DNA from: a virus
Taxonomy: Duplodnaviria > Heunggongvirae > Uroviricota > Caudoviricetes
DNA length: 55,951 nt
Virus record (IMG/VR): IMGVR_UViG_2690316248_000012
Coordinates: 1 to 55,951 of that record
Reading direction: 5' to 3' (one strand)
The position numbers were made by a program, and so were the translations under genes. Within the stretch, counting starts at the first letter, position 1, and each line of letters starts with the position of its first letter. Under the pieces are notes generated by a model. The model did not search any database and had not been told where the DNA came from. It saw only the letters and a list, made by a program, of their open reading frames with translations. Positions 259 to 19,708 of this stretch are shown here, piece by piece.

Positions 259-267
259 TCGTCTGAC

Positions 268-2776: not shown

Positions 2777-2855
2777 TTGCCTGAAATTTAAGATGTTTAA
2801 AATCATGATGTTAGAAGCACTGTTTTTTAACGATGGCGACAAAATGGCGGCAGCG

Positions 2856-3107: not shown

Positions 3108-3164
3108 AACAATGATACCGTATTATTCCATTTTGCAAACTTAAAAGTTCTCCATTGCGAAGAA

Positions 3165-4265: not shown

Positions 4266-4747
4266 GACAGCAGCCCTCCAACCGTTTTACTGATATCGCT
4301 TAAAGCAGACGTTGCCGTGTCCTGCAGATTATTCAGTTGAGTACTGAGATCACCGAACATATCGGACAGGGATTCATCCACCCGTTTTAGCGACAGGGTG
4401 AACTCAATCCGGCGCGGCATACCGTCGCGGAAAAACTCCGTTTTAGTCTGATTCAGTCCCTCAATCACATACATGCCGTAAATCGTGCCGCTTCCTTCAA
4501 TCAGGGGCCATGCTTTCCCCTGTTCTGCCATCTGCTCCAGTGCCAGTAACGACAGCCTGCCGCCTGTTATCTCCGGCATAAGAACACCGGAAAGCGTCAG
4601 CATGTCGTTTTCCGGTCCCAGAAACTGCGTGGACGGACGACGGTTTACCCTGCTGTTTGCCGCATGTCGCCAGCTGCGTTGATACTGCAGCTCCTGATAC
4701 GGCACGGTGCGCAGCATAAACACGTACAATCCCAGCACCATCATCAT
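4262..4747 (-). CDS. U: P2 gpU-like tail protein
   Basis: 161 aa; start overlaps the tape-measure stop; P2 gene order T-U-D. Confidence 0.8.
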   Translation of the reverse strand: MMMVLGLYVFMLRTVPYQELQYQRSWRHAANSRVNRRPSTQFLGPENDMLTLSGVLMPEITGGRLSLLALEQMAEQGKAWPLIEGSGTIYGMYVIEGLNQTKTEFFRDGMPRRIEFTLSLKRVDESLSDMFGDLSTQLNNLQDTATSALSDISKTVGGLLS

Positions 4748-7700
4748 GCGTCGTATCCCCCCTGATCGCTGTAGTTACTCCTGGCTTTTGCCTTCAGCCT
4801 GCGTTCACGTTCATCAAGCTGACGGGCCACCTCCCGCGCAATATCCTGCGCACTTTGTCCTGGCTGCGTCTGAATGATGATCTGCGTCGGTGCCTCAATC
4901 CGTTGAACGGGCGGCACAGTGGCTGCACGACTCACCATCGCTTCGCCGCCTTTCGCGGGAAGTGCCAAAGGATGTAACGGTGGAAGCTCTGCAGGCGCGG
5001 CAGCAACGCCCATCATTCCGGCAACAACAGCAGCCAGTGCAGCGGTATTTTTCCGGCTGGTCACATTTGCCGGGCCGTTAACAATTTCCGGCCCGTTTTC
5101 ACCGACGATGCCAAACTGCCCGCGCGGGATATAGCCGCCGCTGTCATACATCCCCGCAAAGCCATATCCCCATGACGGAAAACCACCCGATGGCATCATC
5201 ACTTTGCCGTCTGCATTCACCGTCGCAGGTTGCTGACGCGTCACGCGTTCCGGCAGTTTTGCCTTTGCGGCCTCTTTACTGACAATGCCGAGTTTTTCCA
5301 GCAACCAGGATACGCCGGATTTCAGGGAGTCCAGCGGATGCATGACCATATTCAGTCCTTCCGCCAGTGCCTCCCCGAATCGTTGCCCCATTGCCGCTGC
5401 GCTCTGCAGTTCAGCAGAGGTCGACTTAACGGGCGTCAGCAGATCAGTAAACCAGCCCCACAACGCCTGCACTTTGTCGCCAATCCACTGGAACACAGGC
5501 TTAAGTGGTTCGAATGCGGCACTGACGGGACCAGCCGCTGCTTTGAATCCTTCCACCACGCCACCGAGAAATGCGGTGATGGGTTGCCAGTATTTCCAGA
5601 CAACCAGTGCCACACCCGCCAGTGCTGTAACCACAAGACCTATTGGACTAAGCAGAGCACCTAACAGACCAGATACGGCATACAGGGCAACGCGCAACAT
5701 CGCCAGTGGACCAGATGCCAGTACTCGCAGCACCGCGCCTGCGGCGGTCAGTCCACCGCGTAGTGCTGCCAGTGGATTCATAAACATCACAGCAACCGCA
5801 CGTAAACCGGATAATCCAGACCGCAACAGTGCAACCGGCGCACCTGCTACAGTTTTCAGGACATTTCCCGTCAGTGATGCCGTGCGGCGCAAAGACGACA
5901 ACGGCGCAGTAAGTAAACCCGCGGCGTTGCCCGATGAAGCAAGCCCGCGTCGCAGCTGTGCCAGTGGTGCGCCAGCCAGCCAGGACAACGCGCTGCTGGT
6001 TCGAGTTACTGCTGCCGTAACGGAAGGTAACGTTTTGATACCCAGCACAGAGAATCCCAGACGGATCACTGCCAGCGGCCCCAGCACTGCAGCCAGCGCT
6101 ACCGCTAAGGTGCCGAGGCCTACGGTAACCGCAGCCACCACAGCGGCTACTTTCATCAGTGTGCCTGTCAGTCCCGGGTTAGCTTCCACCCAGCGGCGCA
6201 ACGCCCCCGTGATGCTTTTCACCGTGTACAGAATATCCATCAGCGGCTGGCGCAGCGTCTCGCCCAGGCTGCTGAAGGTGTTCTGCGCTCCGGTTTTGAT
6301 CAGCAACCACTGCGCAGAAAGTGAGTCCTTGTTAATGTCGGATTCTTTCTGCATGGAAGCGAGCGCATCATTGCCCGCTGTCAGTTTTAGCTGGCGCTGC
6401 AGTTCCGGAAGGTTGTTTGCCAGTTTCGCCGCGTCATCACCAAACTCTTTACCAAACAACATGGTCATGGCAGACAGACGCTTGTCCTGCGGCAGTGCGT
6501 TCACCTTCTCCAGCACACGCTGGATAGTTCCCATCGCATCCTTCGTCATCTGCTTTTCAATCACTTCAGGATTGAGTTTCAGCAGATTCATCCCTTCAAA
6601 GAAACTCTTGCTTTGCATGGTGGCAATGGACAATTCACGCACCATCGCGTTTGCTGCACTGGCTGCAACCTCCGGCGCAGCGCCCAGTGTCAGAAAGGTG
6701 GAACCCAGTGCCGCCGCTTTACGATAATCCAGACGGTCAGCCACACCGCCCAGACGTTGCATCACATCAATGATGTCCGCCCCTTTCGACATGGCGTTAT
6801 CATCCAGATAGTTCAGTGCATCGCCGAGCTGTTCAATATTGCGGGTAGGTATTTTGTAGAGCTGGGCGATTTTCCCCAGACTTTCTGACAGTTCATCCGC
6901 TGGCAGCTCAAAGGCTGTTGCCGCCTTTGCTGCCGTACTGGCGAAGGCCAGCAGGTCACGTTTCTGGTCTTCCCAGCTGTCGTCAGGGTTTGCGACGTTC
7001 ATGCGCGCACCACCTTCAACCAGTGCAGCGAAGTCCACCGCACCGTTTTCCATCGGCAACTGTTCGCTGGCAGCCTTGATGGCATCCTGCATTTCATAAA
7101 AACGTACAGTGCGGTTGCCATTATCGTCACGCAGACCATTGACCTGCTTTGCCACACCTTTCATGGCATCTTCCATGCTGGTATAGCTTTTTACTGCCGC
7201 CATCACTGGCGCACCCATTGCCAGCCCTGCAGCCGTGGTAGTGGCTCCGGCTCCTGCGATGCGATCGCGCACTTCAAGCCGTCTTGAGTATTGTTCTCTG
7301 GCAGCGTTCATCCGTGCCTGTTGTTCACCCAGACGTTTAAGTGCTTTTTGCTGACCCTCCAGTGCCTGCCTTGTTTCTTCAGCATTTTTCTTAAGTTCTC
7401 GCTGGGCACTACTGAGTTGTCTGGTATCAATCCCTGATTCTTTAAGTGCCTGACGTTGTCTTTGGACCGCCCCCAACAAGCCGTTATAGGTCTGCTGAAG
7501 TTCCTGTACTCGTGTTTTGGCCTGACTGAATAACTTTGCCTGCGCGGCGGTTGGCCTGTTAGTGGCAGCAAATTGTGTGGCGAGTTTTGCCGCCTCTTCG
7601 CGGGCTGCGTTCAGGTTGTTGGCTGTTATGGCTAGTTGCGAGCGCGTCTTGCGAAATTCATCAATTCTGCCAGCCTGCTTATTCAGTTCTTTGAGGCTGT

Positions 7701-7821
7701 TTCGGGTATTCTGAATTGCGCCAGCCAGCTCTTTCGAACTGGCCTGTGCAGCACGGAATGGGCGGGTGAGTTTGTCAACCGCATTAAGAATGACCTGCAG
7801 GCGCAGGTTATTATCACTCAT
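4744..7821 (-). CDS. T: tail tape measure protein (gpT-like)
   Basis: 1025 aa, coiled-coil-rich N-terminus, Ala/Gly-rich hydrophobic middle; follows E/E'. Confidence 0.85.
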   Translation of the reverse strand: MSDNNLRLQVILNAVDKLTRPFRAAQASSKELAGAIQNTRNSLKELNKQAGRIDEFRKTRSQLAITANNLNAAREEAAKLATQFAATNRPTAAQAKLFSQAKTRVQELQQTYNGLLGAVQRQRQALKESGIDTRQLSSAQRELKKNAEETRQALEGQQKALKRLGEQQARMNAAREQYSRRLEVRDRIAGAGATTTAAGLAMGAPVMAAVKSYTSMEDAMKGVAKQVNGLRDDNGNRTVRFYEMQDAIKAASEQLPMENGAVDFAALVEGGARMNVANPDDSWEDQKRDLLAFASTAAKAATAFELPADELSESLGKIAQLYKIPTRNIEQLGDALNYLDDNAMSKGADIIDVMQRLGGVADRLDYRKAAALGSTFLTLGAAPEVAASAANAMVRELSIATMQSKSFFEGMNLLKLNPEVIEKQMTKDAMGTIQRVLEKVNALPQDKRLSAMTMLFGKEFGDDAAKLANNLPELQRQLKLTAGNDALASMQKESDINKDSLSAQWLLIKTGAQNTFSSLGETLRQPLMDILYTVKSITGALRRWVEANPGLTGTLMKVAAVVAAVTVGLGTLAVALAAVLGPLAVIRLGFSVLGIKTLPSVTAAVTRTSSALSWLAGAPLAQLRRGLASSGNAAGLLTAPLSSLRRTASLTGNVLKTVAGAPVALLRSGLSGLRAVAVMFMNPLAALRGGLTAAGAVLRVLASGPLAMLRVALYAVSGLLGALLSPIGLVVTALAGVALVVWKYWQPITAFLGGVVEGFKAAAGPVSAAFEPLKPVFQWIGDKVQALWGWFTDLLTPVKSTSAELQSAAAMGQRFGEALAEGLNMVMHPLDSLKSGVSWLLEKLGIVSKEAAKAKLPERVTRQQPATVNADGKVMMPSGGFPSWGYGFAGMYDSGGYIPRGQFGIVGENGPEIVNGPANVTSRKNTAALAAVVAGMMGVAAAPAELPPLHPLALPAKGGEAMVSRAATVPPVQRIEAPTQIIIQTQPGQSAQDIAREVARQLDERERRLKAKARSNYSDQGGYDA

Positions 7822-8250
7822 CGTTGGCCCCGCTTCTCTGAATCGCTTTATACCGCCATTCCAGCACTTCGGTCAGCGCCATAACGTCAGTAACGGATGG
7901 CGGCCAGTGAAAGATGGTGGCGATATCAGCCACCAGATCGTCAACCGTCAGGCTGTCGGTAAACCGGCAAGCACCGACTTCTTCAACAAAAAAGTGACAA
8001 CCTCAACCGACATGGCAGTGAGATCTGCCGGGTCCATCTCTGCAATTTCCTGTGCAGTCAGTGCCGGACTGGAGATGCGGGGGATCACGGTCATCATCGC
8101 GTTCACATCCATATCCATAATGGCCTGCAGGCGTGTACCGCGCAGCGCACCGGACTGCGGTTTACGCAGCACAATTTCGGTAATTTCTGTTTTACCGCGC
8201 TTGATAGGGGTATCCAGTTGAATGGTCTTTTCAGTCTGCTTATCGCTCAT
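7814..8250 (-). CDS. gpE+E' frameshift product (programmed -1 frameshift at TTTTTTG)
   Basis: Hand translation: -1 slip at the T6G heptamer (plus coords about 7987-7993) opens a frame running to a TGA at 7814-7816, overlapping the T start codon; classic P2 E/E' arrangement. Confidence 0.6.
7948..8250 (-). CDS. E: tail assembly chaperone gpE
   Basis: 100 aa ORF immediately upstream of the tape measure gene; contains a TTTTTTG slippery site near its 3' end. Confidence 0.75.
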   Translation of the reverse strand: MSDKQTEKTIQLDTPIKRGKTEITEIVLRKPQSGALRGTRLQAIMDMDVNAMMTVIPRISSPALTAQEIAEMDPADLTAMSVEVVTFLLKKSVLAGLPTA

Positions 8251-8304
8251 TTTGTTGTCCTGTAAATTGGGTTCTGGCGCGGCATTCCGCGCCGTTCAGA
8301 TACA

Positions 8305-8820
8305 TCAGAGGCCGAGAGCGTTGCGGTGCGCTTCCATCAGGTCCACACCGTCCACAATTTCCACCATGTTGATAAGGTCCACTTCATAGAGCACCTCACC
8401 ATTGATGGTCAGCTTCGCGTAGCTGTTGGTACTGGTCACTTTGGTGGTGTTGCTTTCGCCCGTCTTCCACTCACCGGAATCCACTTCTTTGTGACGTCCA
8501 CGCACCACAAGCTCCACGGCCTGCACTTCCCCGGTATCGTCACGCTGGATAGAGCCGGTAAAGCGCAACTGGATGCCATCCACCGTGGCTTTGCCTATCT
8601 GCTTAAACAGCAGCAGTTCAGTACCACCAATGGAAAATTCTGTGTCCAGCGCACTGTCATCAAGCCCCAGATCCACATCCACTGCCCCCGGCATTCCGCC
8701 GCCGCGATACTTCTCATATTTGCGGGTGAATTTCGGCAGCGTCAGCGACTCAACGATCCCCTGCCAGTTGTTCCCGTCGTTAAACAGGTTCAGGTGTTTT
8801 AATTTGCGTGGTAAAGCCAT
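8305..8820 (-). CDS. FII: tail tube protein (gpFII-like)
   Basis: 171 aa; directly downstream of sheath gene as in P2. Confidence 0.8.
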   Translation of the reverse strand: MALPRKLKHLNLFNDGNNWQGIVESLTLPKFTRKYEKYRGGGMPGAVDVDLGLDDSALDTEFSIGGTELLLFKQIGKATVDGIQLRFTGSIQRDDTGEVQAVELVVRGRHKEVDSGEWKTGESNTTKVTSTNSYAKLTINGEVLYEVDLINMVEIVDGVDLMEAHRNALGL

Positions 8821-8829
8821 GTTGTCCCC

Positions 8830-10002
8830 TTACGCGCTGACCTGGCTGGCGAAATTCACCAGGTACTGATCGGTGATGCGCTGACGCAACATCAGGTTTT
8901 CAAGTGGCGGCACTGGCGTGTAGTCGTAGTCGATGGTGAGTTTTCCGGCTTTCAGAGTGTCTTTGTCGTTCACCGACTCATCCAGCCAGCAATCACCACC
9001 AATGAGATACCCCTGACTGACCAGGCTGCGCATTTTGGCGCGGATGCCCTCGATAATGTCGCGCGCCAGCGACGGGTTCAGCGGTTTGTCCACTGCCCAC
9101 ATGTGCGCTTCTGCCATTGTGTCCGTCAGCACCTGCGCCGTGCGGGTGTAGTTTTCGAAGGCAAAGAGCGGGTCATCACTCAGGCAGCGGGAACCCCAGA
9201 AGCGAAAACCGTCTTTGCGGATAAGGGTGGTGACGTCGTTCTGGTTCAGCAGTCCCGCATCGCTTGCCGGGTCCTGCAGATCCCAGAACACATCAGCAGA
9301 AATTCCGGTGACACCGTTAACGCCTACGTTGGACAGGCTTTTGTGCCATCCGGTCTGCTCGTCAATTTTGGCGCGCAGACCAAGCGCACGGGCGGTGGCA
9401 TAAGCCGTTGCTTCGGCATTCAGCACCGTGTCCCAGCCAGTAAAGTCGGGCCAGATCAGCATTCCTTCACGCTGACTGAAGTTTTCACGGTAAGTGATTG
9501 CTTCCTGCACCGTCTTGCAACCATACGCTGACAGGTAAGCAAATCCACGCAGGCTTTGCGCCACGCTCAGCAACTCAGTAGCTACCGCCTTCGTGTCGTG
9601 ACCTGGCACGCCGAGAATGCGCGGTTTAACGCCGAGCTGTGACTGGGCAGATAACAGGGCTTTCATGCCTGTTTTTTTACCTTCAGCAGTCACTGCGCCG
9701 ATGATATTGGTCGTGGTTTCTTCTTCCGTTTCACCCTGCGGCACACGCACAACAACGGTCACGGGTTTTGCCTGGTCAGCGATGGCATCCAGCGAACGGG
9801 CCAGCGTACCGGACTCGCCCGCTTTACCGCTGGCAGTCAGCACATCAGTGATCAGCACGGGTTTATTAAGAGGAAACATTTTTGCATCGGCATCATCGCC
9901 CGTGCAGACCATACCCACGATGGCGGTGCTCACCGTGGTAATGGATCGGGTGCCTTCGTTGACTTCAACAACGCGCACTCCGTGGTGGTAATCCTGAGCC
10001 AT
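8830..10002 (-). CDS. FI: contractile tail sheath protein (gpFI-like)
   Basis: 390 aa; size and position match P2 FI. Confidence 0.85.
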
Positions 10003-10078
10003 AGTGGCGAACCTCCTGATTGGATTAGGCTTCGCCCTATGTTGAAGTGATTGTGCCTGACAAACAGCTAAGCGCAGT

Positions 10079-10096
10079 TGTACCGTTATTCACACA
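10079..10096. promoter_or_regulatory. TGT-N12-ACA element upstream of FI (candidate Ogr-dependent late promoter box)
   Basis: tgt accgttattcac aca read directly; centred about 85 bp upstream of the FI start codon; P2 late promoters carry this dyad near -55. Confidence 0.4.
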
Positions 10097-10144
10097 AAAT
10101 GACGGTATTTGTCTGCTTTCAGGGATAATCAAAATAAAGCTGAT

Positions 10145-10717
10145 TCAGGGAGATTCATTGCTCTTATTTGCCGGAAATTTTCTATAAATGGTAGAAACGC
10201 CTACATCAAAAATCAGTGCAATACGCTGTCTTGATTCTCCGGCCTCGAGTAAACGCCCAATCTGTGCCCACTGTTCGGTAGTCAACTTAGGACGGCGTCC
10301 ACCTACTCTGCCTTTAGCACGAGCTGCAGCCAGCCCTGCCCTGGTACGTTCAACTATCAGTTCGCGTTCCATTTCAGCCAGGGCACCCATGACATGAAAA
10401 AAGAAACTGCCCATTGGGGTACTGGTATCAATACTGTCAGTCAGACTTCGGAAATTCACGCCGCGCTGGCGCAACTCTTCTATCAGCGTAACAAGATGCC
10501 GCATACTGCGCCCCAACCTGTCCAGCTTCCAGACAACCAGTGTGTCACCTGCCGATAGTGTCCTGAGCAGTTTTTTAAGCCCCGGTCTGTCGGACTTAGT
10601 GCCACTGATTTTGTCCTCAAAAATCCGCTCACATCCCGCGCAGTTCAGCGCACTACGTTGCAAATCGGTGTTCTGGTCATTTGTTGACACGCGTACATAG
10701 CCAATAAGCATGATCAT
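10145..10717 (-). CDS. serine DNA invertase (Gin/Pin/Hin/Cin family)
   Basis: 190 aa; N-terminal GYVRVSTNDQ catalytic serine motif, C-terminal HTH; adjacent to the invertible segment. Confidence 0.9.
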   Translation of the reverse strand: MIMLIGYVRVSTNDQNTDLQRSALNCAGCERIFEDKISGTKSDRPGLKKLLRTLSAGDTLVVWKLDRLGRSMRHLVTLIEELRQRGVNFRSLTDSIDTSTPMGSFFFHVMGALAEMERELIVERTRAGLAAARAKGRVGGRRPKLTTEQWAQIGRLLEAGESRQRIALIFDVGVSTIYRKFPANKSNESP

Positions 10718-10797
10718 CTCCTTGAATAAAAACCGGGGATGATGCCAGTTAGTCGTAATCGCTGCATTTTCTTAAACGTTGGTTTAGGAGAAGGCTC

Positions 10798-11194
10798 TGC
10801 ATTACCCGTAGGTGTGCCTGTTCCGTGGCCTTCAGTCACACCGCCAACAGGCTGGCTGAAATGCAACGGTGCAGCTTTTTCTGCCGAAGAGTATCCGGAA
10901 CTGGCAAAAGTTTATCCGACAAATAAATTGCCAGATTTACGCGGCGAATTCATTCGTGGGTGGGATGATGGAAGAGGAATTGATTCAGGACGGACTCTCC
11001 TGTCTGCTCAGGACGGGAGCATTGAGGCACACGGCCATGATTACAATGGGGTCATCTATACTTCTAGCGGTCCTTCCTGGGCTAATACGACGGATGCGGG
11101 ACACCGGGCATATTCGGGATTTACATCATCATATGGCGGAAGCGAAACCCGTCCACGAAATATTGCATTTAACTATATCGTAAGGGCTGCATAA
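10798..11194 (+). CDS. alternative tail-fibre C-terminal variable segment (no own start; expressed only after inversion)
   Basis: Frame reads GLGEGSALPVGVPVPWP...NIAFNYIVRAA, homologous to the C-terminus of the fibre at 54497-55951; begins at the crossover site. Confidence 0.6.
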
Positions 11195-11796
11195 TGGATA
11201 ACGCCGTATTAAATAGCGAGATTATTGCCACGAAGGCGGGGAATATTACCGTCTATAACTATGATGGTAAAACTCGGGAATATATTTCTACTTCAAATGA
11301 ATATCTTGCCATTGGTGTCGGTATCCCTGCATATTCCTGTTTAGATTCACCAGTTACATGTAAAGCTGGTTATGCAATCTGCCGTTCTGCAGATTTTAAC
11401 TCATGGGAATATGTGCCAGACCATCGCGGTGAAATCGTTTTTAGCACCGAAACAGGAGAATCAAAAGAAATCACAGCACCAGGTGATTACCCTGAAAATA
11501 CAACCACTATCGCCCCGTTAACGCCATACGATGAATGGGATGGTGAGAAATGGGTGACAGATACTGAGGCACAGCATAGCGCCACACTAGACGCGGCAGA
11601 AGCACAGCGTCAGTCACTGATTGATACTGCAATGGCTTCCATTAGTCTGATTCAACTGAAATTGCAGGCCGGGCGGAAGCTGACGCAGACAGAAAACACC
11701 CGACTTAACGCTGTGCTGGATTACATTGATGCGGTGACGGCAACAGATACCAGCACAGCGCCGGACGTCATCTGGCCTGAACTGCCGGAGGCGTAG
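11194..11796 (+). CDS. tail fibre assembly protein (alternative-orientation chaperone)
   Basis: 200 aa; C-terminal TATDTSTAPDVIWPELPE motif shared with the opposed chaperone; position after the variable fibre segment. Confidence 0.7.
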   Translation: MDNAVLNSEIIATKAGNITVYNYDGKTREYISTSNEYLAIGVGIPAYSCLDSPVTCKAGYAICRSADFNSWEYVPDHRGEIVFSTETGESKEITAPGDYPENTTTIAPLTPYDEWDGEKWVTDTEAQHSATLDAAEAQRQSLIDTAMASISLIQLKLQAGRKLTQTENTRLNAVLDYIDAVTATDTSTAPDVIWPELPEA

Positions 11797-12211
11797 GCCA
11801 TTCAATATCTGGAGCACTGGAGGTATCAACCAGTTCCAGTGCGTCCAGATAATCCAGCCACAAATTATATTGCGCCAGTTCCTCACCTTTCAGGCGACCA
11901 ATCGCTGCTTTACCAGGCCATTGCTTACTGTATATGTATTCGTTGACCTGATTAATCAATTGCTGCTTTTCCAGTTCGGCTGCGGCAATTTGTTCCTCAT
12001 GAGTTGGCGGTGGAATTTCCCCCCAGGTGGGAAGGCCATCATCACCCGCGATGCGTACTTTCCCTTGCAACGTTCTGTCTTCAATAAATTCCAGGTAAGT
12101 GTCATATGTCACTTCGACAATATCAGCAAGTTCCCATCCGGCCTGTTCATATTTCGCCACATCATTTTTAGCGAAAAAACTATTATTTGAGGCGCTATAA
12201 ACCATTTCCAT
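11768..12211 (-). CDS. G: tail fibre assembly protein (gpG-like)
   Basis: 147 aa directly downstream of H; C-terminal LVDTSSAPDIEWPTPP motif. Confidence 0.75.
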   Translation of the reverse strand: MEMVYSASNNSFFAKNDVAKYEQAGWELADIVEVTYDTYLEFIEDRTLQGKVRIAGDDGLPTWGEIPPPTHEEQIAAAELEKQQLINQVNEYIYSKQWPGKAAIGRLKGEELAQYNLWLDYLDALELVDTSSAPDIEWPTPPAVQAR

Positions 12212-12212
12212 A

Positions 12213-13619
12213 TTAATACCCTACTGCAATATAAAAAACTGATTCACCAGCGTCCTGAGCACCTGTCCCCGGAATTCCAGACCAGGCTTTGTTAATGAAT
12301 GCAAAACTGGTATTACTCAGATCAGATGCTCTGTACATCGGGCTGAACATCCAGTAGTTGGCTCCATATGTTTGTCCGAAAACAATGCCATAGCACTGAT
12401 TTGTAAATGGCGTAGAAAATAATTTTCCACCATTACCAGCGATAGCACCGAATCGCATCTGGAATCCATTAGGGAAATTAACGCCACCCGATGCGGAAGA
12501 CCAGAAAGACATATCCGGTATCTGATTATCTCCTGTGCCCACATCCCTTTTCGCCGCTTCTCCTAAACCAAGGTATGCGAGAAGACCAGCAACATCCTTT
12601 CCACTCAAATTAGTCAGCGTATTGTCCAGCGGTTGTTTACCTGCTAGCGCATTAAGCATTGTCGTGGCAAAGTTCGGGTCATTCCCCAGCGCCGCCGCCA
12701 GTTCGTTCAATGTATCCAGTGCCGCAGGTGCAGACCCCACCATTGCTGCAATCGCCGATTTCACAAAAGCCGTAGTGGCAATCTGTGTATTGTTAACCGA
12801 CTGTGCGGCAGTAGGGGCTGTTGGCGTTCCGGTGAGTGCCGGACTCGACAGCGGCGCTTTCAGTGCCAGCGCATTGTTAATGGTGGTACTGAATTTCGGA
12901 TCATTGTTAATGGCTGCGGCTATTTCTTTTAGCGTGTCCAGCGTGGCTGGCGCACCATTAATAAGGGCCGTCAGTGCCGCCTGAACAAACGCGGTGGTCG
13001 CAAGTTGCGTGGTATTATTCCCCGCCGCTGGCGTCGGCGCTTTGGGGGTTCCGGTAAATATCGGGCTGGCTTTTGGCGCATACTGTGAATGTGGGTCCGC
13101 TGCGGCAAGGTGTTTTGCCATTTGGTCATCCACATACACCTTCAGCTCCAGTGCCTTATCATCCACATACTTGCGAGTTGCCAGTACTACAGCAGGGTCG
13201 ATTTTCAGGGTGATATTGTCCGTACTGCTGGTAATCAGCACCATGCGCACGGTCTGGGTACGCCCGCTGCCTTCAGCCAGTTGCGGCTTATAGCTTTCCG
13301 GGCAGTTTCCCACGGCAATCAATACCCCGGACTCATCAAACAGGCCCACTTCACGTATCCACCAACCACCCTCATTTTCAGGGATCACCTGTTCAGCAAT
13401 AATCTGGCTGCTGTTCTGCGGGTCGATATAGAGCATATTCAGCGCAGCCCGGCGTTTCTCATTTACCAATGCTGTCTGCTTGGCGTCCGGCGTTGGCAAT
13501 GTTCCGCCGCCATCGCCGACCGCCATATGGGTAATTTTTAAAGGCACACCGAGCGCGGCGGCGCTGGCGAGTTTCGCCGCGCCAATATCCGTCAGCAGGG
13601 TATAAAATTTTGTGCTCAT
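12213..13619 (-). CDS. H: tail fibre protein (gpH-like), C-terminus encoded within the invertible segment
   Basis: 468 aa; repeated TQLATTAFV / TPKAPT motifs; crossover sequence falls near codon 348 (YLGLGE). Confidence 0.8.
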   Translation of the reverse strand: MSTKFYTLLTDIGAAKLASAAALGVPLKITHMAVGDGGGTLPTPDAKQTALVNEKRRAALNMLYIDPQNSSQIIAEQVIPENEGGWWIREVGLFDESGVLIAVGNCPESYKPQLAEGSGRTQTVRMVLITSSTDNITLKIDPAVVLATRKYVDDKALELKVYVDDQMAKHLAAADPHSQYAPKASPIFTGTPKAPTPAAGNNTTQLATTAFVQAALTALINGAPATLDTLKEIAAAINNDPKFSTTINNALALKAPLSSPALTGTPTAPTAAQSVNNTQIATTAFVKSAIAAMVGSAPAALDTLNELAAALGNDPNFATTMLNALAGKQPLDNTLTNLSGKDVAGLLAYLGLGEAAKRDVGTGDNQIPDMSFWSSASGGVNFPNGFQMRFGAIAGNGGKLFSTPFTNQCYGIVFGQTYGANYWMFSPMYRASDLSNTSFAFINKAWSGIPGTGAQDAGESVFYIAVGY

Positions 13620-14221
13620 GGATTCACTCTCATTGTGTCAATAACATGGACCGCTCCGCCTTCATGCGCGGTGCCGCCGGAAATAATTGTTTCGTTGATA
13701 TACGGATAGATCGTGATTTCTTCGCCAAGATAGCTGGCAGCTCCCACCCAATGCGGGCCGCTGGTCTGCAGGTTGATGGACATGCCGATCATGTGACGGC
13801 TACATGGTTTGGCATCGCTTATCAGTCGCTCAAGTTCCAGATAGGTATCTTCAGTGATGCCCTGGTCCTGCACGCCGATATCCAGACGAAACGTGCCCGG
13901 AGTCTCTCCGGTCTGCCACCACTCAATAATGCGGATCAGAAAGCCGAACGGCTCCACCACCCGCCGCACGGCACTGGTGGTCCCTTTATGCTGATGAATA
14001 TAAAAAGCATCCTTCACCACCTGGCGCTTGACGCTTTCTGTCCAGCCCTCGTCCCAGCGATCCACAGAGAACGCCCAGGCGAGATAAGGCAGGAAACTGA
14101 CCGGACAGGTTGCCGGATTCCACAAGTCACGCAGCGGCACCTGCAGATCAGAAATCCCGCTACAGGTCTGCGCCAGTCGGCGCTCCAGTGAAGTTGAACC
14201 CAGTGGCAGCAGACTATTCAT
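13616..14221 (-). CDS. I: baseplate protein gpI-like
   Basis: 201 aa; position between J and H. Confidence 0.75.
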   Translation of the reverse strand: MNSLLPLGSTSLERRLAQTCSGISDLQVPLRDLWNPATCPVSFLPYLAWAFSVDRWDEGWTESVKRQVVKDAFYIHQHKGTTSAVRRVVEPFGFLIRIIEWWQTGETPGTFRLDIGVQDQGITEDTYLELERLISDAKPCSRHMIGMSINLQTSGPHWVGAASYLGEEITIYPYINETIISGGTAHEGGAVHVIDTMRVNP

Positions 14222-15122
14222 CCGTTCCTCCGTTGGTTACGCTCCACTGCGTACATGATGCGGCCTGTGTTTTGTTCAGGACCACATCAGCCAGCGGTGA
14301 AGCCAGCTCCACACGTTGAACCCCCTCAACATGCAGCGCGGCAAAAATGGCACTACGGCGAATATCCCGACCAAGCCGCGTCTGACTGGCGATGTACTTC
14401 TGCAGGCTGGCTTTTGCCGCTGCCATTACCGGCTCCGCTTCCGGTCCCGGATAGAGAAAAATGGTGGCTTCCACACGGTACGGGATGATTTCTGCGCTGC
14501 GAACCGTCAGACGGTCAGCCACCGGGCGGACGTTCTCACTGTTCAGGGCTTTCTCCACCACATCCAGCAAGTCTTTTTCTGCTGTTCCGTCGCCTTCACG
14601 GCTCAGGACAGTAAGCACCACCTCTGCAGGAGCCGGACTGGTTGCACTGGCATCCGCCACCCGACCGTCGGCGCTTCGGGCATGAAATTCATAAGCTGCA
14701 GTTGGTCCCGCAACTGAAAGCCCCTCAAAGGCTGCAGGCACACGCAGGCGTAACGCTTCATCGCTTTCCATCACTGCTGCAACGGGCGGCACAGCGTCAT
14801 TATCAGCAGGTGTCACCGTCAGGCGTTTCACGTTGTAGTTGGCAGCGAGCTGGTCAAGATCGCCGCCCATCGCGTAAGCCACCATCACCGCCTGCGCGGC
14901 TTCGTTAATGCGTTGGCGCAGAAGCAACTCACGGTAAGTATTCTCCTGCAACAATTTGGTGACGGGTTCAGATTCCAGTTCCAGCGTGCGGATCACTGCT
15001 TCCTGCTCATCTTTCGGATGAAGCGCCACAAATTCTGCCTTGCGTTCGGTAAGCAGCGTCTCAAAGTCCGGCACATCCACAATCTGCGGCGCAGGCAACT
15101 GCGAAAGGTCAATCACTGCCAT
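14214..15122 (-). CDS. J: baseplate protein gpJ-like
   Basis: ORF track gives 315 aa; start trimmed to the MAVIDLSQLP methionine (about 302 aa, P2 gpJ size). Confidence 0.75.
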   Translation of the reverse strand: MAVIDLSQLPAPQIVDVPDFETLLTERKAEFVALHPKDEQEAVIRTLELESEPVTKLLQENTYRELLLRQRINEAAQAVMVAYAMGGDLDQLAANYNVKRLTVTPADNDAVPPVAAVMESDEALRLRVPAAFEGLSVAGPTAAYEFHARSADGRVADASATSPAPAEVVLTVLSREGDGTAEKDLLDVVEKALNSENVRPVADRLTVRSAEIIPYRVEATIFLYPGPEAEPVMAAAKASLQKYIASQTRLGRDIRRSAIFAALHVEGVQRVELASPLADVVLNKTQAASCTQWSVTNGGTDE

Positions 15123-15468
15123 TCTCTGCTCCTGTCGATACGGAAAGGGACACAGGTACACCGTTATTCCGCCGCCCGGTCAGCTCCACCACCATAGAAC
15201 CGTCAAAGTTGCTGTTGATGGTGATGGAATCCAGCGTCAGCCGTGGCTCCCAGCGACTCAGCGCCACATACACTGCCGACATGACCTGCAGGCGTAACGC
15301 CGGATTTTGTGGCTGGTCTATCAGTGCCGACAGCAGGGAACCATATTCCCGGCGGGCAATGCGGCTACCCTGCGGTGTCAGCAGAATGTCCCGCACCGAC
15401 TGGCGCAGATGGTCAATATCAGTAATAGCTTTGCCGCTGGTATTGTTCATCCCGCTATAAAGCGTCAT
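15109..15468 (-). CDS. W: baseplate wedge protein gpW-like (GPW/gp25 family)
   Basis: 119 aa; position between V and J. Confidence 0.75.
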   Translation of the reverse strand: MTLYSGMNNTSGKAITDIDHLRQSVRDILLTPQGSRIARREYGSLLSALIDQPQNPALRLQVMSAVYVALSRWEPRLTLDSITINSNFDGSMVVELTGRRNNGVPVSLSVSTGAENGSD

Positions 15469-16043
15469 ACCGGGCCTCCGGTTGTGTCGCCGCCTTTCAG
15501 GACGCCAGTATGCTGATGTGCATCAACCACAATTCCGTTAGAACTCATTGCACCGCCGCCCTGGGTAACACCACCATTGATCACTACTTCGCTGTTAATA
15601 CGCGTGCGGTCAGCCTCCAGCACAAACTCTCTGGTTTTCAGGGTGATGTTGTCAGCAGCCTCAATGACCATGGATTTGATGCCCCTGACATACCAGCGCC
15701 CGGTGGCTGGTTCGTATTCAAACCAGCCACCGTCAGGATGTTCTGTCACGCAGGCTTCCGCCGACGTCGACGGTGGTGCGAACTGATTCGAATAGACAGC
15801 GGGCAGCGCAAAGGCGGTTTCCAGATTTCCTCCCAGACTCAGCAGCACCACCTGCTCACCTTCCGATGGTCGCCACCATGTGCGGGCATTACCCGCGCGC
15901 AGCGTCAGCCAGTTAATCCAGTTGGTTTCAAGGTCGCCCGTTTTCACCCGACAAAGCCAGTTTTCCTTGTCCACTTCAGTGACTACCCCTGTGCGGATCA
16001 GGTTGGTGATAAGGCGCATGATTTCTGTGAGTTGTGTATTCAT
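15465..16043 (-). CDS. V: baseplate spike/assembly protein gpV-like
   Basis: Start trimmed to MNTQLTEIMRL; alignable by eye to P2 gpV; paralogous to 51831-52427. Confidence 0.8.
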   Translation of the reverse strand: MNTQLTEIMRLITNLIRTGVVTEVDKENWLCRVKTGDLETNWINWLTLRAGNARTWWRPSEGEQVVLLSLGGNLETAFALPAVYSNQFAPPSTSAEACVTEHPDGGWFEYEPATGRWYVRGIKSMVIEAADNITLKTREFVLEADRTRINSEVVINGGVTQGGGAMSSNGIVVDAHQHTGVLKGGDTTGGPV

Positions 16044-16090
16044 AAGATTATTTTTCCATGCTTTACACAACCTCTTCAAACAGCTTATTT

Positions 16091-16108
16091 TGTATAAAAG
16101 AAGATACA
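16091..16108. promoter_or_regulatory. TGT-N12-ACA element upstream of V (candidate Ogr-dependent late promoter box)
   Basis: tgt ataaaagaagat aca read directly; about 50-65 bp upstream of the V start codon; spacing to ATG is shorter than expected. Confidence 0.3.
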
Positions 16109-16136
16109 ATTTTCTTTGAAAAGAAATAAACCCTCT

Positions 16137-16185
16137 GGTTAGAGGTTAGAGGTTAGAGGTTAGAGGTTAGAGGTTAGAGGTTAGT
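16137..16185. repeat. tandem heptanucleotide repeat (GGTTAGA) x6 plus one imperfect unit
   Basis: ggttaga repeated head-to-tail from 16137; lies between the Old-like gene stop and the V promoter region. Confidence 0.9.
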
Positions 16186-16218
16186 AGAATATCGCAGGGT
16201 TTCCCCTGCGACCATTTA

Positions 16219-18177
16219 TCAATTAAACTTTACAGGTTTATCACTTATAAAAAAATTTTCAATTTTGGCAATCCACTCTGGCCTTTTCCGCTCATTTCGC
16301 TCACAGATTGAAATATATTCCTTTGAAAAATCAAACTTAATTCCTTCACGGTCAAAAAAAGCATCAAGCGTTTTTTTGTTCTTGGGTGACAAATCCATCG
16401 CAGCAAACGATGAATGTCTTTCATCTATCATAACATTACTATTAGGCAGCAATGCCTGAAGCTCAGGAAAACGTGAAGAAAATGATGTTAAAGCCTCTAT
16501 AAACGATACAGGATTAAGACAATCCTCTATTTCTGTTGCAGGAGAAACTGGATTGGAAGAAATATCAACCAACTTCACTGAATCACCTACACTAACAATT
16601 CGCTTACAAACAACATGCGGCATAACTGGGGTATCATATGACACCAACTCTGAATCTGTATCGGTTAGTAAGAACACTTTTCCTTTGAGGTCTTTTTTGA
16701 ACTCTTCATAAGAAGCTTCTAAATGCTTAAATATTTTTTTAACTTCACTAGCTCCCCCTACAGGCACAATCCTTAGCCTTTTATTTTCTACCAAGTCCTT
16801 TAGATAATGCGAAAGATATATTTTTTCTGTAGTACCCTCACAAATCAACCAATTGTAAGGTTTCTCAGCCAAACAGCTAGATATTATGGATTGTATAAGG
16901 TCATTTACACTTTTTATTTTTATATCAAATGGCATACCCGGGGAAGAGGTTTTTACTTTCTTCCTGACTTCTTCTCTATAACTGGCAAGATCATATAATT
17001 CAAAATGATGAGTTGAATCTGTTTTAAGGATAGTTGTGGTACATCCATTTTCGACGGTTGGAAGATAGCCATACCAATGTGAAGTAAATATTAATTGTTC
17101 ACATATACCACTAATAGAATAGAGCTTTTCAAATTGTTCAAAACATGCAGACATATGAAGAGAACATTCTGGCTCATCAATTCCAATAATCAGATTATCG
17201 CCATTTTCTCTATGATTGGTAAGAAACCCATATGCAATATCCATTATTGCACGTTGCTTCTCCCCTGAACTTAGCGAGCTAATTTCAATCCAACCTGAAT
17301 TCTGCTTTTTATTTAATTTCCTAACTTTGAAGAATGCTTCGATAATCAAATTATAAACATCTTTCTTTTTTAATCGCGATTGTCTCTCGCCAGATGTTCT
17401 ATAACCATATTCTTCAAGCTCCTCTTCAACACCATCCAGAAATTTGGCAAGCCCTGTATTGATTTGACTTATGGTTCTATCAGATATTCTATCTTTAATT
17501 ATCTGCTCTAAAGACTCACCCATCAACTTTTGTACTTCACTTGTTTCTAGCTTCGTAAACGATTCAGAGTCTATATCCTTTGGAATATATATATATTCAT
17601 ACTTATGGCGGACATGATGTAATAAATACCCAAAGTGCTTACTAAGCAACTCGCTCGAAACTTTATTATCGGGATTATCAACCTCCAAAAGTCGACATAA
17701 ACTCTTCCCATTAAGAATCGAAATACTTACATCACCATCTTTCTCGACACCCAGAGGGATCAAAAAATAATCTTGGAGATTTAAATTTCTTTTTAATTTG
17801 TTAATATGTTCAAAAAACGTATTAATTATATTTCGTGTTGTTGGCGTCAATGTAACATCAGCATTACTATTGCTATATTCTAATACTAATTGCGTTAAGA
17901 TTTCAGCTTTAGCATGATGATCTTCATGTAATTCCTCTCGCTTTATAAGATATAAAGGAACAATATGTGGAGAAGGTCTGTCACTGGAGGTTCTTTTAAA
18001 TGAAGAATTAATATTCCATGGTTTGTTATTAATAAACGAATCTAAAGCCTCAAGAACAGAACTTTTGCCAATTCCATTGTTACCAACAATTCCACAAAAC
18101 TGACTTCCAGAAGATAACGGTATGTAATGATTTCCGTTGTATGTTTTAAAATACCTTAAAAAAATCCCTACTATCAT
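16219..18177 (-). CDS. old: OLD-family overcoming-lysogenization-defect nuclease (ABC-type ATPase + TOPRIM), P2 Old-like
   Basis: 652 aa; Walker A GNNGIGKSS, signature LSSGEKQ, Walker B IGIDEPECSLH, H-loop FTSHW, TOPRIM Glu in LICEGTTE and DxD in LLTDTDSE; same motif order as P2 Old; AT-rich gene. Confidence 0.8.
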   Translation of the reverse strand: MIVGIFLRYFKTYNGNHYIPLSSGSQFCGIVGNNGIGKSSVLEALDSFINNKPWNINSSFKRTSSDRPSPHIVPLYLIKREELHEDHHAKAEILTQLVLEYSNSNADVTLTPTTRNIINTFFEHINKLKRNLNLQDYFLIPLGVEKDGDVSISILNGKSLCRLLEVDNPDNKVSSELLSKHFGYLLHHVRHKYEYIYIPKDIDSESFTKLETSEVQKLMGESLEQIIKDRISDRTISQINTGLAKFLDGVEEELEEYGYRTSGERQSRLKKKDVYNLIIEAFFKVRKLNKKQNSGWIEISSLSSGEKQRAIMDIAYGFLTNHRENGDNLIIGIDEPECSLHMSACFEQFEKLYSISGICEQLIFTSHWYGYLPTVENGCTTTILKTDSTHHFELYDLASYREEVRKKVKTSSPGMPFDIKIKSVNDLIQSIISSCLAEKPYNWLICEGTTEKIYLSHYLKDLVENKRLRIVPVGGASEVKKIFKHLEASYEEFKKDLKGKVFLLTDTDSELVSYDTPVMPHVVCKRIVSVGDSVKLVDISSNPVSPATEIEDCLNPVSFIEALTSFSSRFPELQALLPNSNVMIDERHSSFAAMDLSPKNKKTLDAFFDREGIKFDFSKEYISICERNERKRPEWIAKIENFFISDKPVKFN

Positions 18178-18322
18178 AAAATTAGCTCCATTAGTGAGGT
18201 GAAGACATTAAAGTACAACAAGATTAATCTCAAAAAAAGAGCTTTATAGTATATTCAAGCAAGGTATCTTATGTAGAACGATAAAGTCTCCCTCCACTAA
18301 TTCTCTTAACCCACTATTTACT

Positions 18323-18760
18323 TTAGCGTTTTAAGTAAACACCCAAGTTCAAGTTACTAATATCCTTAGTAAATCCTAAAAGCCTTCTCTCAGGGTACTG
18401 TACTTTTAAACCTCTTCGACTAACACGGTCACGCAGTCCATAGTGGTGTACACAGGCGATGCGCTGGACTTTTCCATCAAAATACACGCAGGCATAATCC
18501 GCTGTGGCGGCAGTTTTCAGGTATTTATTAGTGCGCAATTTGGCGAACATCTGGCGTTTGATGCGCCCCTTCTTACTGCGGGCTGCTACCCGGCGCGGCT
18601 CAAAGCCGCTGCCATCAGGGTTAAGCTGCAGCCTGATATTCTTCTGCTGATTGCGGCGCAACTCCTGCGCCAGTTCCCGCATCATACGCTGGCGTGTGGC
18701 AGGCTCCAGATTCGCCAGCAAGGCCGCCAGCCACTCATCCACCTTCTGCAGTTCAGCCAC
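18323..18760 (-). CDS. S: tail completion protein gpS-like
   Basis: 145 aa; position after R and before V as in P2. Confidence 0.65.
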   Translation of the reverse strand: MAELQKVDEWLAALLANLEPATRQRMMRELAQELRRNQQKNIRLQLNPDGSGFEPRRVAARSKKGRIKRQMFAKLRTNKYLKTAATADYACVYFDGKVQRIACVHHYGLRDRVSRRGLKVQYPERRLLGFTKDISNLNLGVYLKR

Positions 18761-19184
18761 GTTTCACCGTCCACATTTCTTCAGGTTCATCAGGTTCCGC
18801 TATAGCTTCAACGCTCGACACACTGCCGTCAGTGCTGACCAGCACACGCTCCGTCAGTTGCAGGTTAAGGCTGATATCACAGACATCGTTGCGCAGAATA
18901 TCCACCTCAAAGGTGAATAACTTTTCCCGTAACGCCGGATTATTGATGGCATCGGGCTGGTTATCCCGCAGCCACAGCAAAACCGGGGCCATCAGCAGAT
19001 TCTGGTCGCCGCTGAAATCCTCAATCACCACGTTCAGGGTGTAGCGGTACTCCCATGACATGGAGCTGGCCCCCGTGGCAACCAGCGAACCGTTATCCAC
19101 AAACAGATGCAGTTTGTCCGGGTTATTGCGGACATAAGGCACCGCCTTATTGAGGGCGTGGCGCAGGGATTGTGGTTTGTTCAC
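18753..19184 (-). CDS. R: tail completion protein gpR-like
   Basis: KPQSLRHALNKAV aligns with the P2 gpR N-terminus; start set to the GTG before it (ORF track start 19205). Confidence 0.65.
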   Translation of the reverse strand: MNKPQSLRHALNKAVPYVRNNPDKLHLFVDNGSLVATGASSMSWEYRYTLNVVIEDFSGDQNLLMAPVLLWLRDNQPDAINNPALREKLFTFEVDILRNDVCDISLNLQLTERVLVSTDGSVSSVEAIAEPDEPEEMWTVKRG

Positions 19185-19437
19185 TGTTTCGCTCCTGACA
19201 CGCAATAATCATGTCCACTTTGTCTGCACAGACCGCCCAGGCGGCCTCCGTTTCATCCAACAACGCGTTCAGATCACCGTTAATGCGCGGCGCTGCCTGA
19301 TCCAGCCGACACGGCGTCACTCGCGGACAACCACTGACGGTAAGCTGCACCTCCGGTGAGCGTGGGGCGTTCCCGCAGCCGGATAATGTCAGCAGGCAAA
19401 GGAGTATCAGCCCAGCGGCGTAAATCCTCGTTCTCAC
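19147..19437 (-). CDS. lysC: o-spanin (LysC/Rz1-like outer-membrane lipoprotein)
   Basis: 96 aa; signal peptide with lipobox LTLSGC; overlaps the lysB 3' end in another frame. Confidence 0.75.
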   Translation of the reverse strand: MRTRIYAAGLILLCLLTLSGCGNAPRSPEVQLTVSGCPRVTPCRLDQAAPRINGDLNALLDETEAAWAVCADKVDMIIACQERNSEQTTIPAPRPQ

Positions 19438-19708
19438 GTTTCAGTTCCTCAATCCGGTGTTGTCGTTGTCTCAGCAGTGCGCTGGTCTGTTCTGCGTCGG
19501 CATAGAGCCGCGCCTGCTCCCGGTTGTTGGTTTCAGCCAGAATGGACAGGCTGATAAGCTGGCTGTTGCTCTTTGCCAGTGCCTGGCTTTTGCTCTGCAG
19601 CTCGTCTGCCTGCGTGCTAATGGTCTGGCTGGCATCAGCCAGCCGCCACGTCTGCCAGCCCAGCGCCGCCAGTAATAACGCCAGCACAACCAGCAGCAAC
19701 CGGTTCAT
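19280..19708 (-). CDS. lysB: i-spanin (LysB/Rz-like)
   Basis: 142 aa; N-terminal transmembrane anchor then coiled coil; o-spanin gene overlaps in another frame. Confidence 0.75.
   Translation of the reverse strand: MNRLLLVVLALLLAALGWQTWRLADASQTISTQADELQSKSQALAKSNSQLISLSILAETNNREQARLYADAEQTSALLRQRQHRIEELKRENEDLRRWADTPLPADIIRLRERPTLTGGAAYRQWLSASDAVSAGSGSAAH

Follow-up and report, generated by a model that had tools for sequence, protein, structure and literature searches.

The window, by which we mean the whole stretch of 55,951 nucleotides that was analysed (IMG/VR virus record IMGVR_UViG_2690316248_000012), contains a P2-like Escherichia coli prophage, which adjoins ybjL, and a Mu-like prophage inserted in it. 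In the P2-like tail module, a DNA invertase gene and the gene for an H-like tail fibre flank an invertible segment of 1.79 kb with two opposed cassettes, each comprising a fibre tip and a chaperone (Table 1). The preliminary description of this DNA had recognised a Gin/Pin-family invertible fibre switch here, and the sites, the invertase and the opposed cassettes were all confirmed. We refer to this locus (10145-12583) as switch 1 and to the corresponding system of the Mu-like prophage as switch 2.

Table 1 Features of the two prophages and their switches in the window.
Feature	Position	Strand	Remarks
Gin/Pin-family serine DNA invertase gene	10145-10717	-	190-aa ORF; 188 aa from the likely start at 10711
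Presumed Fis-dependent recombinational enhancer	10622-10693	-	Invertase gene nt 19-90; homologous to the annotated P1 cin enhancer
Crossover site L, invertase-proximal	10767-10792		26 bp; central TT at 10779-10780; reverse complement TTCTCCTAAACC-AA-CGTTTAAGAAAA
Silent fibre C-terminal cassette	10794-11194	+	Pfam Collar, 1e-14
Tfa chaperone for silent cassette, TfaE-like	11194-11796	+	200 aa; Pfam Caudo_TAP, 7e-32
Tfa chaperone for expressed cassette	11768-12211	-	147 aa; Pfam Caudo_TAP, 3.5e-30
Expressed fibre C-terminal cassette	12213-12556	-	Part of the 468-aa ORF 12213-13619
Crossover site R, within the fibre gene	12558-12583		26 bp; central AA at 12570-12571; TTCTCCTAAACC-AA-GGTATGCGAGAA
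Constant N-terminal part of P2 H-like tail fibre	12572-13619	-	Pfam Phage_tail_fib N-terminal domain, 3.6e-65
Left end of transposable Mu-like prophage	19990-19991		Inserted in the P2-like lysA gene
Tail-fibre gene of Mu-like prophage	54497-55951	+	484 aa; Pfam Phage_fiber_2 repeats and Collar; window ends at the stop codon
Crossover site A, belonging to the switch of the Mu-like prophage (switch 2)	55431-55456		26 bp; reverse complement TTCTCCTAAACC-AA-GGTAATTGAGGA
Expressed C-terminal cassette of Mu-like fibre	55458-55951	+	Exact hybrid of two cassettes in relatives

The start of the invertase was placed at the position where its RefSeq relatives begin. The protein contained the Pfam domains Resolvase (8e-53) and HTH_7 (1.5e-15). 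Its alignment to the structures of Mu Gin (3UJ3 and 4M6F; E 3e-91) covered the full length of the protein and showed that the catalytic Ser is retained and the stretch ...YVRVSTNDQ... conserved. Its build is that of a Din recombinase: approximately 190 aa, with the catalytic domain at the N-terminus, a catalytic Ser close to residue 9-10, and an HTH at the C-terminus. Identity was 155/188 (82%) to PinE of e14, 143/188 to Cin of P1, and 136/188 (72%) to Gin of Mu. A putative enhancer in the 5' end of the gene was assigned by its homology to the annotated P1 enhancer; this stretch is identical to that of P1 at 55 of 72 positions and to pinE at 88%. A scan with a loose Fis consensus (G-N13-C, inner Y/R/W) gave one conserved match, a 15-mer that is found at nt 78 of both Mu gin and the KS21 gene, and in the homologous place in the invertase gene of the window; the second expected site fell outside the pattern. 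The presumed enhancer and the centre of site L are ~86 bp apart, and the corresponding distance in the hin system is roughly 100 bp (PMC3798978).

The exact 15-mer TTGGTTTAGGAGAAG occurs in the window at 10779-10793(+), 12557-12571(-), and 55443-55457(+); none of 100 shuffles reached an equal match count when up to 3 mismatches were allowed. Sites L and R are inverted relative to each other, and site A is direct relative to L and inverted relative to R. As expected of Din sites, L and R form an inverted 26-bp pair with imperfect half-sites of 12 bp and the same 2-bp core, AA. The preliminary description had called for a comparison with known gix and pix sites, and in this comparison both sites resembled e14 pix (21-24/26 identical), P1 cix, and Mu gix. 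Site L was 24/26 identical to the invertase-proximal pix site of e14, TTCTCCCAAACCAACGTTTATGAAAA, and site R was 22/26 identical to P1 cixR, TTCTCTTAAACCAAGGTATTGGATAA. The central AA is also that of cix and pix, whereas Mu gix has TC. The same core had been reported inside the Mu-like fibre gene; indeed, a genuine crossover-type site is present at 55443(+), inverted relative to that at 12557. The sites are alike because the crossover site overlaps the LGLGE codons at the junction between the constant and variable parts of the fibre throughout the family; LGLGE starts at residue 350 of the P2-like fibre. The shared core, which encodes this conserved junction, is thus family-wide and marks no special link between the P2-like and the Mu-like prophage.

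Both tips of switch 1 are in frame with the H constant part, giving a fibre of 468 aa in the state of the window and one of 487 aa when the silent cassette is joined after inversion. One N-terminus with alternative tips, each followed by its own chaperone gene, is the arrangement of the host-range switches of the Mu G and P1 C type. Homologues of the expressed cassette are named 'gp53-like' in RefSeq, and the region of the 200-aa chaperone has 90.7% nucleotide identity to the tfaE region of e14. The homologous C-terminus previously attributed to the two fibres holds for the silent P2-like cassette, which resembles the Mu-like tip (77% over the first 145 nt; 49% amino-acid identity overall), but not for the expressed one. 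Conservation between the silent cassette and the Mu-like tip concerns the collar part and the final 14 residues, and the receptor-binding middle differs. As a separate observation, one tip module is common to the P2-like and Mu-like families at 97-100% identity.

On the model of the invertasome mechanism described in PMC3798978, the invertase would bind the two inverted 26-bp sites of the P2-like prophage, Fis would act on the enhancer at the start of the invertase's own gene, and the 1.79-kb segment would flip in a supercoiling-dependent invertasome. We infer the dependence on Fis and the enhancer. State 1, that of the window, combines the constant part with the 'gp53-like' tip and the 147-aa chaperone, and state 2 combines it with the Collar-domain tip and the 200-aa chaperone.

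Both states occur in nature. The orientation of the window was found at 100% identity over 3,801 nt in four complete E. coli genomes, and the exactly flipped segment (10779-12571) was found in one piece, at 100% over 2,801 nt, in seven others. Inversion of switch 1 is therefore supported at the population level, across genomes, and the switch looks active.

The region from 19990 to 55951 is a transposable Mu-like prophage lying within the P2-like lysA gene and extending past the end of the window. Positions 1-19990 are 99.96% identical to an uninterrupted P2-like prophage (APEC 16-1068), and the match stops at 19990. Other E. coli genomes have the end of the Mu-like element at many loci that are unrelated, and the genes of the element include an rve (DDE) transposase, an AAA_22 (MuB-like) ATPase, Gam, GemA, and Mor; this gene set and the scattered insertions are those of a transposable Mu-like phage. 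The early operon is divergent from the late operon, and in this respect the element presumably resembles BcepMu/phiE255 rather than Mu itself. The same nested insertion was found in 0 of 5,426 complete E. coli genomes; the junction between lysA and the Mu-like element was present in the run ERR9839861, on one 32-kb Logan contig that ends before the fibre. The 'two tail sets' mentioned in the preliminary description are accordingly those of a Mu-like prophage sitting within a P2-like prophage.

The site at 55443 had been regarded as a partner of the P2-like switch. It belongs instead to the Mu-like prophage, where it appears to be the first site (A) of a three-site inversion system with its own invertase, a second switch independent of the first; the part beyond 55951 is deduced from relatives. 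A protein identical to the Mu-like fibre (54497-55951) is encoded on four metagenome contigs, and contigs L007 and L009 encode this identical protein. Both of these contigs and KS21 contain sites A(+), B(+), and C(-) together with additional cassettes and the genes for a Tfa protein and an invertase, so that the separate invertible segment downstream of the Mu-like fibre, for which a check had been proposed, is present in relatives. There, site B directly follows the fibre stop codon, the inverted site C adjoins the second invertase, which is 76% identical to the first, and the stretch between B and C holds two silent cassettes and one chaperone gene. Switch 2 also inverts naturally: L007 and L009 have the B-C segment of 1,617 bp in opposite orientations (1605/1617 identical once one copy is reverse-complemented; flanks 500/500). 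In B36, the Mu-like constant part appears to run into another cassette. Another three-site inversion system is the Min system of p15B.

Switch 1 is of an already known kind; public E. coli genomes contain it, annotated, at 100% identity. Among named systems, the P segment of e14 in E. coli K-12 provides the closest invertase, PinE, and is likewise ~1.8 kb long with two convergent Tfa genes that overlap by 29 nt, in addition to the similarities of the invertase-proximal site and the 200-aa chaperone region given above. However, e14 is a lambdoid remnant, whereas the present element is a P2-like myovirus prophage, and the window's fibre tips and 147-aa chaperone are unrelated to those of e14 at the DNA level. 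Mu G/Gin and P1 C/Cin share with switch 1 the constant part, the intragenic crossover site, the two opposed tip-plus-chaperone cassettes, and the adjacent invertase (identity 72-76%), whose gene contains an enhancer near its 5' terminus, which is presumed here; their segments measure 3 or 4.2 kb as opposed to 1.8 kb. Among enterobacteria, switches of this very kind occur within this family of phages, in the P2-like prophages of EPEC E2348/69 and in the phages Cartapus, pro483, 500465-1, and Klebsiella KP12. The deposited phage genomes match the present region at 88-95% and have a DNA invertase annotated between the fibre and sheath genes. These loci differ in nothing of substance, apart from the Mu-like prophage that additionally interrupts the present one.

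In EPEC, inversion of P2-like fibre loci has been observed at the read level, and active invertible fibre loci, one of them a three-repeat version, have been reported in E. coli P2-like and Mu prophages (PMC4272514). The P2-like 'shufflon' of that report, with three inverted repeats, four variants, and three C-termini, has a design that the Mu-like sites A, B, and C with their three tips match; here, however, the host element is a transposable Mu-like prophage, only one chaperone gene is present, and most of the system is beyond the window. The ST131 'Bone' isolates carry P88-like, BP-4795-like, and phiE255-like prophages, and their P88-like and phiE255-like prophages have homologous fibres as well as invertases and share the repeat that bounds the switch; the study describes inversions that are reversible, and also a 'translocation' (bioRxiv 10.1101/2022.05.07.487787). 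P2-like and Mu-like (phiE255-type) prophages are thus co-resident there as in the window, but nesting is not described and no inter-prophage inversion is reported in those isolates either.

The insertion of roughly 38 kb splits the P2-like prophage, which is probably unable to form phage, and switch 1 might accordingly be a fossil that keeps its sites and invertase after recombination was lost. We consider this very improbable, given both orientations at 100% identity among 11 complete genomes and an invertase that is full length, retains its catalytic serine, and matches the one in another P2-like prophage, that of strain NQ3, at 187/188 positions. Even less credible is a recent gene conversion within the same cell, by which the P2-like switch donated the 15-nt identity to the Mu-like fibre. 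Relatives with the identical fibre protein have TTGGTTTGGGGGAAG at site A and the window has the P2-like version, as such a donation would leave it. However, when the Mu-like cassette is numbered with the start of the 15-mer as position 1, its nt 1-215 match the second KS21 cassette, which is the Mu-like family's own, with 0 mismatches, and its nt 213-509 match the first KS21 cassette, again with 0 mismatches, whereas the patch and the P2-like silent cassette diverge at position 19 and beyond. The patch corresponds to the Mu-like second cassette and not to the P2-like silent cassette; therefore, the donor was the Mu-like prophage itself, and conversion from the P2-like switch was rejected. Judged from these alignments, the exact 15-nt match at site A derives from a silent patch of the Mu-like prophage's own second cassette.

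It had also been proposed that recombination between 12557 and 55443, site-specific or homologous, could invert about 43 kb and swap receptor specificities between the P2-like and Mu-like fibres. The geometry and chemistry of this proposal are feasible: R and A are inverted, they have the variable-side half-site and the central AA in common, and both fusions are in frame and open to a stop codon. The half-site of A on the constant side is weak, matching at 7 of 12 positions. Members of the invertase family act in trans on segments of other prophages, as PinQ does on e14 (PMC12529663), and an enhancer can work over many kb (PMC3798978); furthermore, the receptor-binding stretch of the Mu-like tip, 270 nt long, is 97-100% identical to a P2-like fibre tip of strain NQ3. 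However, no product was found. The junctions expected from R and A are GTCCTCAATTACCTTGGTTTAGGAGAAGCGGCGAAAAGGGATG and CTTCTCGCATACCTTGGTTTAGGAGAAGGCTCGGCGCTACCCG, and junction reads would take the form ...TCAATTACCTTGGTTTAGGAGAAGCGGCGAAAAGG...; the hybrid of the Mu-like constant part and the P2-like expressed cassette occurred in 0 of 5,426 complete E. coli genomes, and its junction, as an exact 40-nt query, was absent from JGI metagenome contigs in one scan. The reciprocal hybrid, a P2-like constant part with a Mu-type tip, was found in three genomes and rejected as evidence of inversion, these being ordinary, intact P2-like switches with a tip that is mosaic inside the cassette. In NQ3, the exchange breakpoint is ~210 nt inside the cassette and the P2-like switch is intact, which argues against an event at the crossover site; this one visible cassette exchange points to homologous recombination. 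Between R and A themselves, homologous recombination is implausible, with only 19 nt shared. Moreover, for the invertasome to assemble, the enhancer and the two sites must meet at a single plectonemic branch (PMC3798978), which we judge to be rare over 43 kb of chromosome, and a single inversion would place the Mu-like ends (19990 and the right end) in direct orientation, so that the element would be disabled and no new host range gained. A literature search for invertase-mediated inversions between prophages, partly swamped by plant-invertase papers, returned trans action (PinQ on e14) and no inter-prophage inversion. A 43-kb inversion as a working feature is thus unlikely. Slightly less likely still is a distributed shufflon, in which rare recombination among the five compatible sites by the two invertases would link the switches; an R x A inversion followed by an L x C inversion would restore the 43-kb backbone with whole cassette sets exchanged. 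Either invertase can probably act on both switches, and crosstalk between them is possible in principle, outside their normal function.

The reading that we prefer is that of two nested prophages, one P2-like and one Mu-like, each with its own independent switch of the Gin/Hin/Cin/Pin (Din) family, to which we assign a probability of approximately 0.85. The tail-fibre tip of the P2-like prophage is evidently under an ordinary and active DNA-inversion switch of the Gin/Pin type, and inversion of fibre tips is textbook bet-hedging on host range. The tip exchange that is visible between the phage families resulted from recombination where the conserved collar domain ends, and not at the crossover site. 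A distributed shufflon, if true, would be a site-specific route by which receptor-binding modules move between unrelated phage families, and recombination between the switches, if shown, would provide a mechanism both for the transfer of such modules and for prophage-driven inversions of the chromosome.

The 15-mer TTGGTTTAGGAGAAG was present in the window in three exact copies, at 10779-10793 (plus strand), 12557-12571 (minus strand), and 55443-55457 (plus strand), and 0 of 100 dinucleotide-preserving shuffles reached this match count. The first two copies overlap sites L and R, the inverted crossover sites of a P2-like fibre switch, and the third overlaps site A inside a Mu-like fibre gene, where the preliminary description had reported a further copy of the core. 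The three sites showed the anatomy of the Din-family crossover type, a 2-bp core flanked by two 12-bp half-sites. When they were compared with known sites, as had been suggested, L was identical to the invertase-proximal pix of e14 at 24 of 26 positions, and R to cixR of P1 at 22 of 26. The core AA is common to the window sites, pix, and cix, whereas that of Mu gix is TC; close variants of the window core sequence occur in e14, P1, and the Mu-like relatives. In every fibre compared, the LGLGE codons, which lie where the constant part meets the variable part, overlap the crossover site.

Features of the two fibre switches and of the prophages that carry them
Feature	Position	Strand	Details
Invertase ORF	10145-10717	-	Resolvase and HTH_7 domains
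Site L	10767-10792		26 bp; reverse complement TTCTCCTAAACC-AA-CGTTTAAGAAAA
Silent fibre tip	between L and R	+	Collar domain; with 200-aa Caudo_TAP chaperone
Expressed tip of 468-aa P2 H-like fibre	between L and R	-	with 147-aa chaperone
Site R	12558-12583		26 bp; TTCTCCTAAACC-AA-GGTATGCGAGAA
Truncated LysA ORF	19705-20001		start codon inside Mu-like end
Early-arm genes	from 19990 on	-	Mor, GemA, Gam, AAA_22 ATPase, rve transposase, regulators
Late-arm genes		+	lysis, head, contractile tail, fibre last
Site A	55431-55456		26 bp; reverse complement TTCTCCTAAACC-AA-GGTAATTGAGGA

A Gin/Pin-type invertase had been described beside a segment with inverted sites and two opposed tip/chaperone cassettes, and both the domains and the sites agreed with this. 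The invertase ORF aligned over its full length with solved Mu Gin structures, with the catalytic serine kept, and showed 82%, 76%, and 72% identity to PinE, Cin, and Gin, respectively. In the P1 record, the Cin enhancer is annotated at nt 19-90 of cin. The homologous stretch of the window invertase gene (10622-10693) was identical to the P1 enhancer at 55 of 72 positions and 88% identical to pinE. Some 86 bp separate it from the middle of site L, and the enhancer-to-hix distance in the hin system is ~100 bp (PMC3798978). Fis would be expected to bind at this presumed enhancer.

Subsequently, both orientations of the segment were searched for in complete E. coli genomes. When a 3,801-nt query in the window state was used, four genomes showed a 100% match in one piece. 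When 10779-12571 was reverse-complemented in place in a 2,801-nt query, seven other genomes showed 100% identity over all 2,801 nt, again in one piece. Identical DNA in either orientation, broken exactly at the predicted sites, is the trace expected of an active inversion switch in a population; the P2-like switch is real and apparently active. The fibre ORF is open in both versions (468 and 487 aa). The P2-like phages Cartapus, pro483, 500465-1, and Klebsiella KP12 have the same type of locus with an annotated DNA invertase, and in EPEC, sequencing reads have demonstrated inversion in P2-like as well as Mu prophages (PMC4272514). The window switch is an already well-known kind of system.

The Mu-like prophage (19990-55951) is nested within the P2-like prophage. 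Positions 1-19990 showed 99.96% identity to an uninterrupted P2-like prophage beside ybjL in APEC 16-1068, and this identity ended at 19990, within a lysA-like gene. The same end of the Mu-like element was found in other genomes at mdfA, gcl, ptsP, kefF, rstB, irp1, and many more loci, a scatter indicating that the element is a transposable phage. In its divergent early and late arms, it is similar to BcepMu/phiE255, and among deposited phages PhiKM is its closest relative. Within the collection, the lysA-like insertion at 19990/19991 was absent from every complete E. coli genome; a Logan contig from run ERR9839861 carries the junction.

Several other genes were observed in the two prophages. 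A 652-aa ATPase with an OLD-like Toprim domain, encoded between genes V and S of the P2-like prophage (16219-18177, minus strand), matched PADLOC AriA (1e-21) and Old (2e-11) and is probably the product of an anti-phage cargo gene; the gene is intact in the window, but the annotation of APEC 16-1068 splits it into two CDSs. Seven copies of the 7-nt repeat GGTTAGA (16137-16185) adjoin it, where a Logan contig breaks. Between the Mu-like early and late arms lies a DNA adenine methyltransferase gene (30455-31219, minus strand; PADLOC MTase_II, 6e-112), with an uncharacterised 247-aa ORF without a family match beside it (31680-32423). The Mu-like tape-measure gene contains three tandem 261-nt repeats (48182-48964; 93-100% identical), and its protein has 1,070 aa in the window versus 983 aa in one relative; the tail length of the Mu-like phage may vary with the repeat number.

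The window ends at the stop codon of the Mu-like fibre, and an identical 484-aa fibre was encoded on four metagenome contigs. On two of them, a second site followed the stop codon at once; beyond it came two more Collar-domain tips, a single Tfa gene, a third site in inverted orientation, and an invertase of 190 aa that shares 76% identity with that of the P2-like switch. The other two break 204 nt past the fibre gene. The 1,617-bp segment between the second and third sites was flipped between contigs L007 (11461-13077) and L009 (8245-9861): once reverse-complemented, it agreed at 1605/1617 positions, and the 500-nt flank on either side at 500/500. The layout of a further relative, KS21, equals that of L007 and L009. 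In another, B36, the same fibre constant part apparently reads directly into another tip, the gene being annotated there as fragments. Since relatives carry sites, tips, and an invertase past an identical fibre, position 55443 is considered part of a separate second switch; judging from these relatives, it is site A of a three-site inversion system. An invertible segment downstream of the Mu-like fibre, which the preliminary description had proposed to look for, is thus present in relatives with the identical fibre, in both orientations. A three-site design was described for an EPEC P2-like prophage (PMC4272514).

In relatives of the Mu-like prophage (L007, L009, and L002 at 11812-14581), three sites and three tips are accompanied by only one chaperone gene, some tips thus having no chaperone gene beside them, and the stop codon of the first tip directly adjoins the second site. 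The constant part of the window's Mu-like fibre contains a 292-nt direct repeat (54691-55282; 85% identical, 300-nt spacing) representing Phage_fiber_2 repeats, a possible source of length variation and assembly breaks.

In relatives with an identical fibre protein, site A reads TTGGTTTGGGGGAAG; the exact core match of the window sits in a 215-nt patch that is silent at the protein level. In the Mu-like tip (55443-55951), the first 215 nt matched the silent second cassette of the relatives at 100% identity and the remainder their first cassette, also at 100%, with the junction where the Collar domain ends. This hybrid tip looks like the result of internal gene conversion between cassettes. Acquisition of the core match from the P2-like switch was ruled out, as the P2-like silent cassette diverges from position 19 on. 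The resemblance of the P2-like switch to the distant fibre is a family likeness of two co-resident switches.

The preliminary description had proposed that recombination between R and A could invert about 43 kb and swap fibre specificities between the P2-like and Mu-like tails. Its structural part stood: R and A lie in inverted orientation with the same core AA and would give in-frame fusions on both sides. PinQ acts in trans on e14, showing that invertases of this family reach other prophages (PMC12529663). However, the predicted fusion of the P2-like expressed tip to the Mu-like constant part was absent from 5,426 complete genomes and had no match in a metagenome scan. Homologous recombination is unlikely because the stretch shared by R and A is only 19 nt. 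For an invertasome to form, the enhancer and the two sites have to meet at a single branch of supercoiled DNA (PMC3798978), a geometry that in our judgement would be rare across 43 kb of chromosome. Moreover, the left end of the Mu-like prophage would be flipped relative to its right end, and neither transposition nor packaging would be expected. We regard this inversion as quite improbable. Inversion between R and A followed by one between L and the inverted third site of the Mu-like system would swap the cassette sets whole and restore both backbones. Occasional recombination between the two switches, which we consider improbable, is the sole reading with some novelty.

The reciprocal fusion, a P2-like constant part with a Mu-type tip, was found in three genomes. 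In E. coli NQ3 (L006), it is located in a normal P2-like switch, and its tip (4486-4994) is a mosaic: the first ~210 nt are like the P2-like silent cassette, and the last ~270 nt share 97-100% identity with the Mu-like tip of the window. The breakpoint falls where the Collar domain ends, at the same place as the junction in the hybrid tip of the window. The nearest published pair is that of the ST131 'Bone' preprint (bioRxiv 10.1101/2022.05.07.487787), in which P88-like and phiE255-like prophages have homologous fibres, invertases, and a common repeat. The P2-like fibre with a Mu-like tip in NQ3 indicates that the tip module is common to two unrelated prophage families. Taken together, the mosaic tip and the coinciding breakpoint indicate that the P2-like and Mu-like families exchange tips, and the visible route of this exchange is homologous recombination within the conserved collar region.
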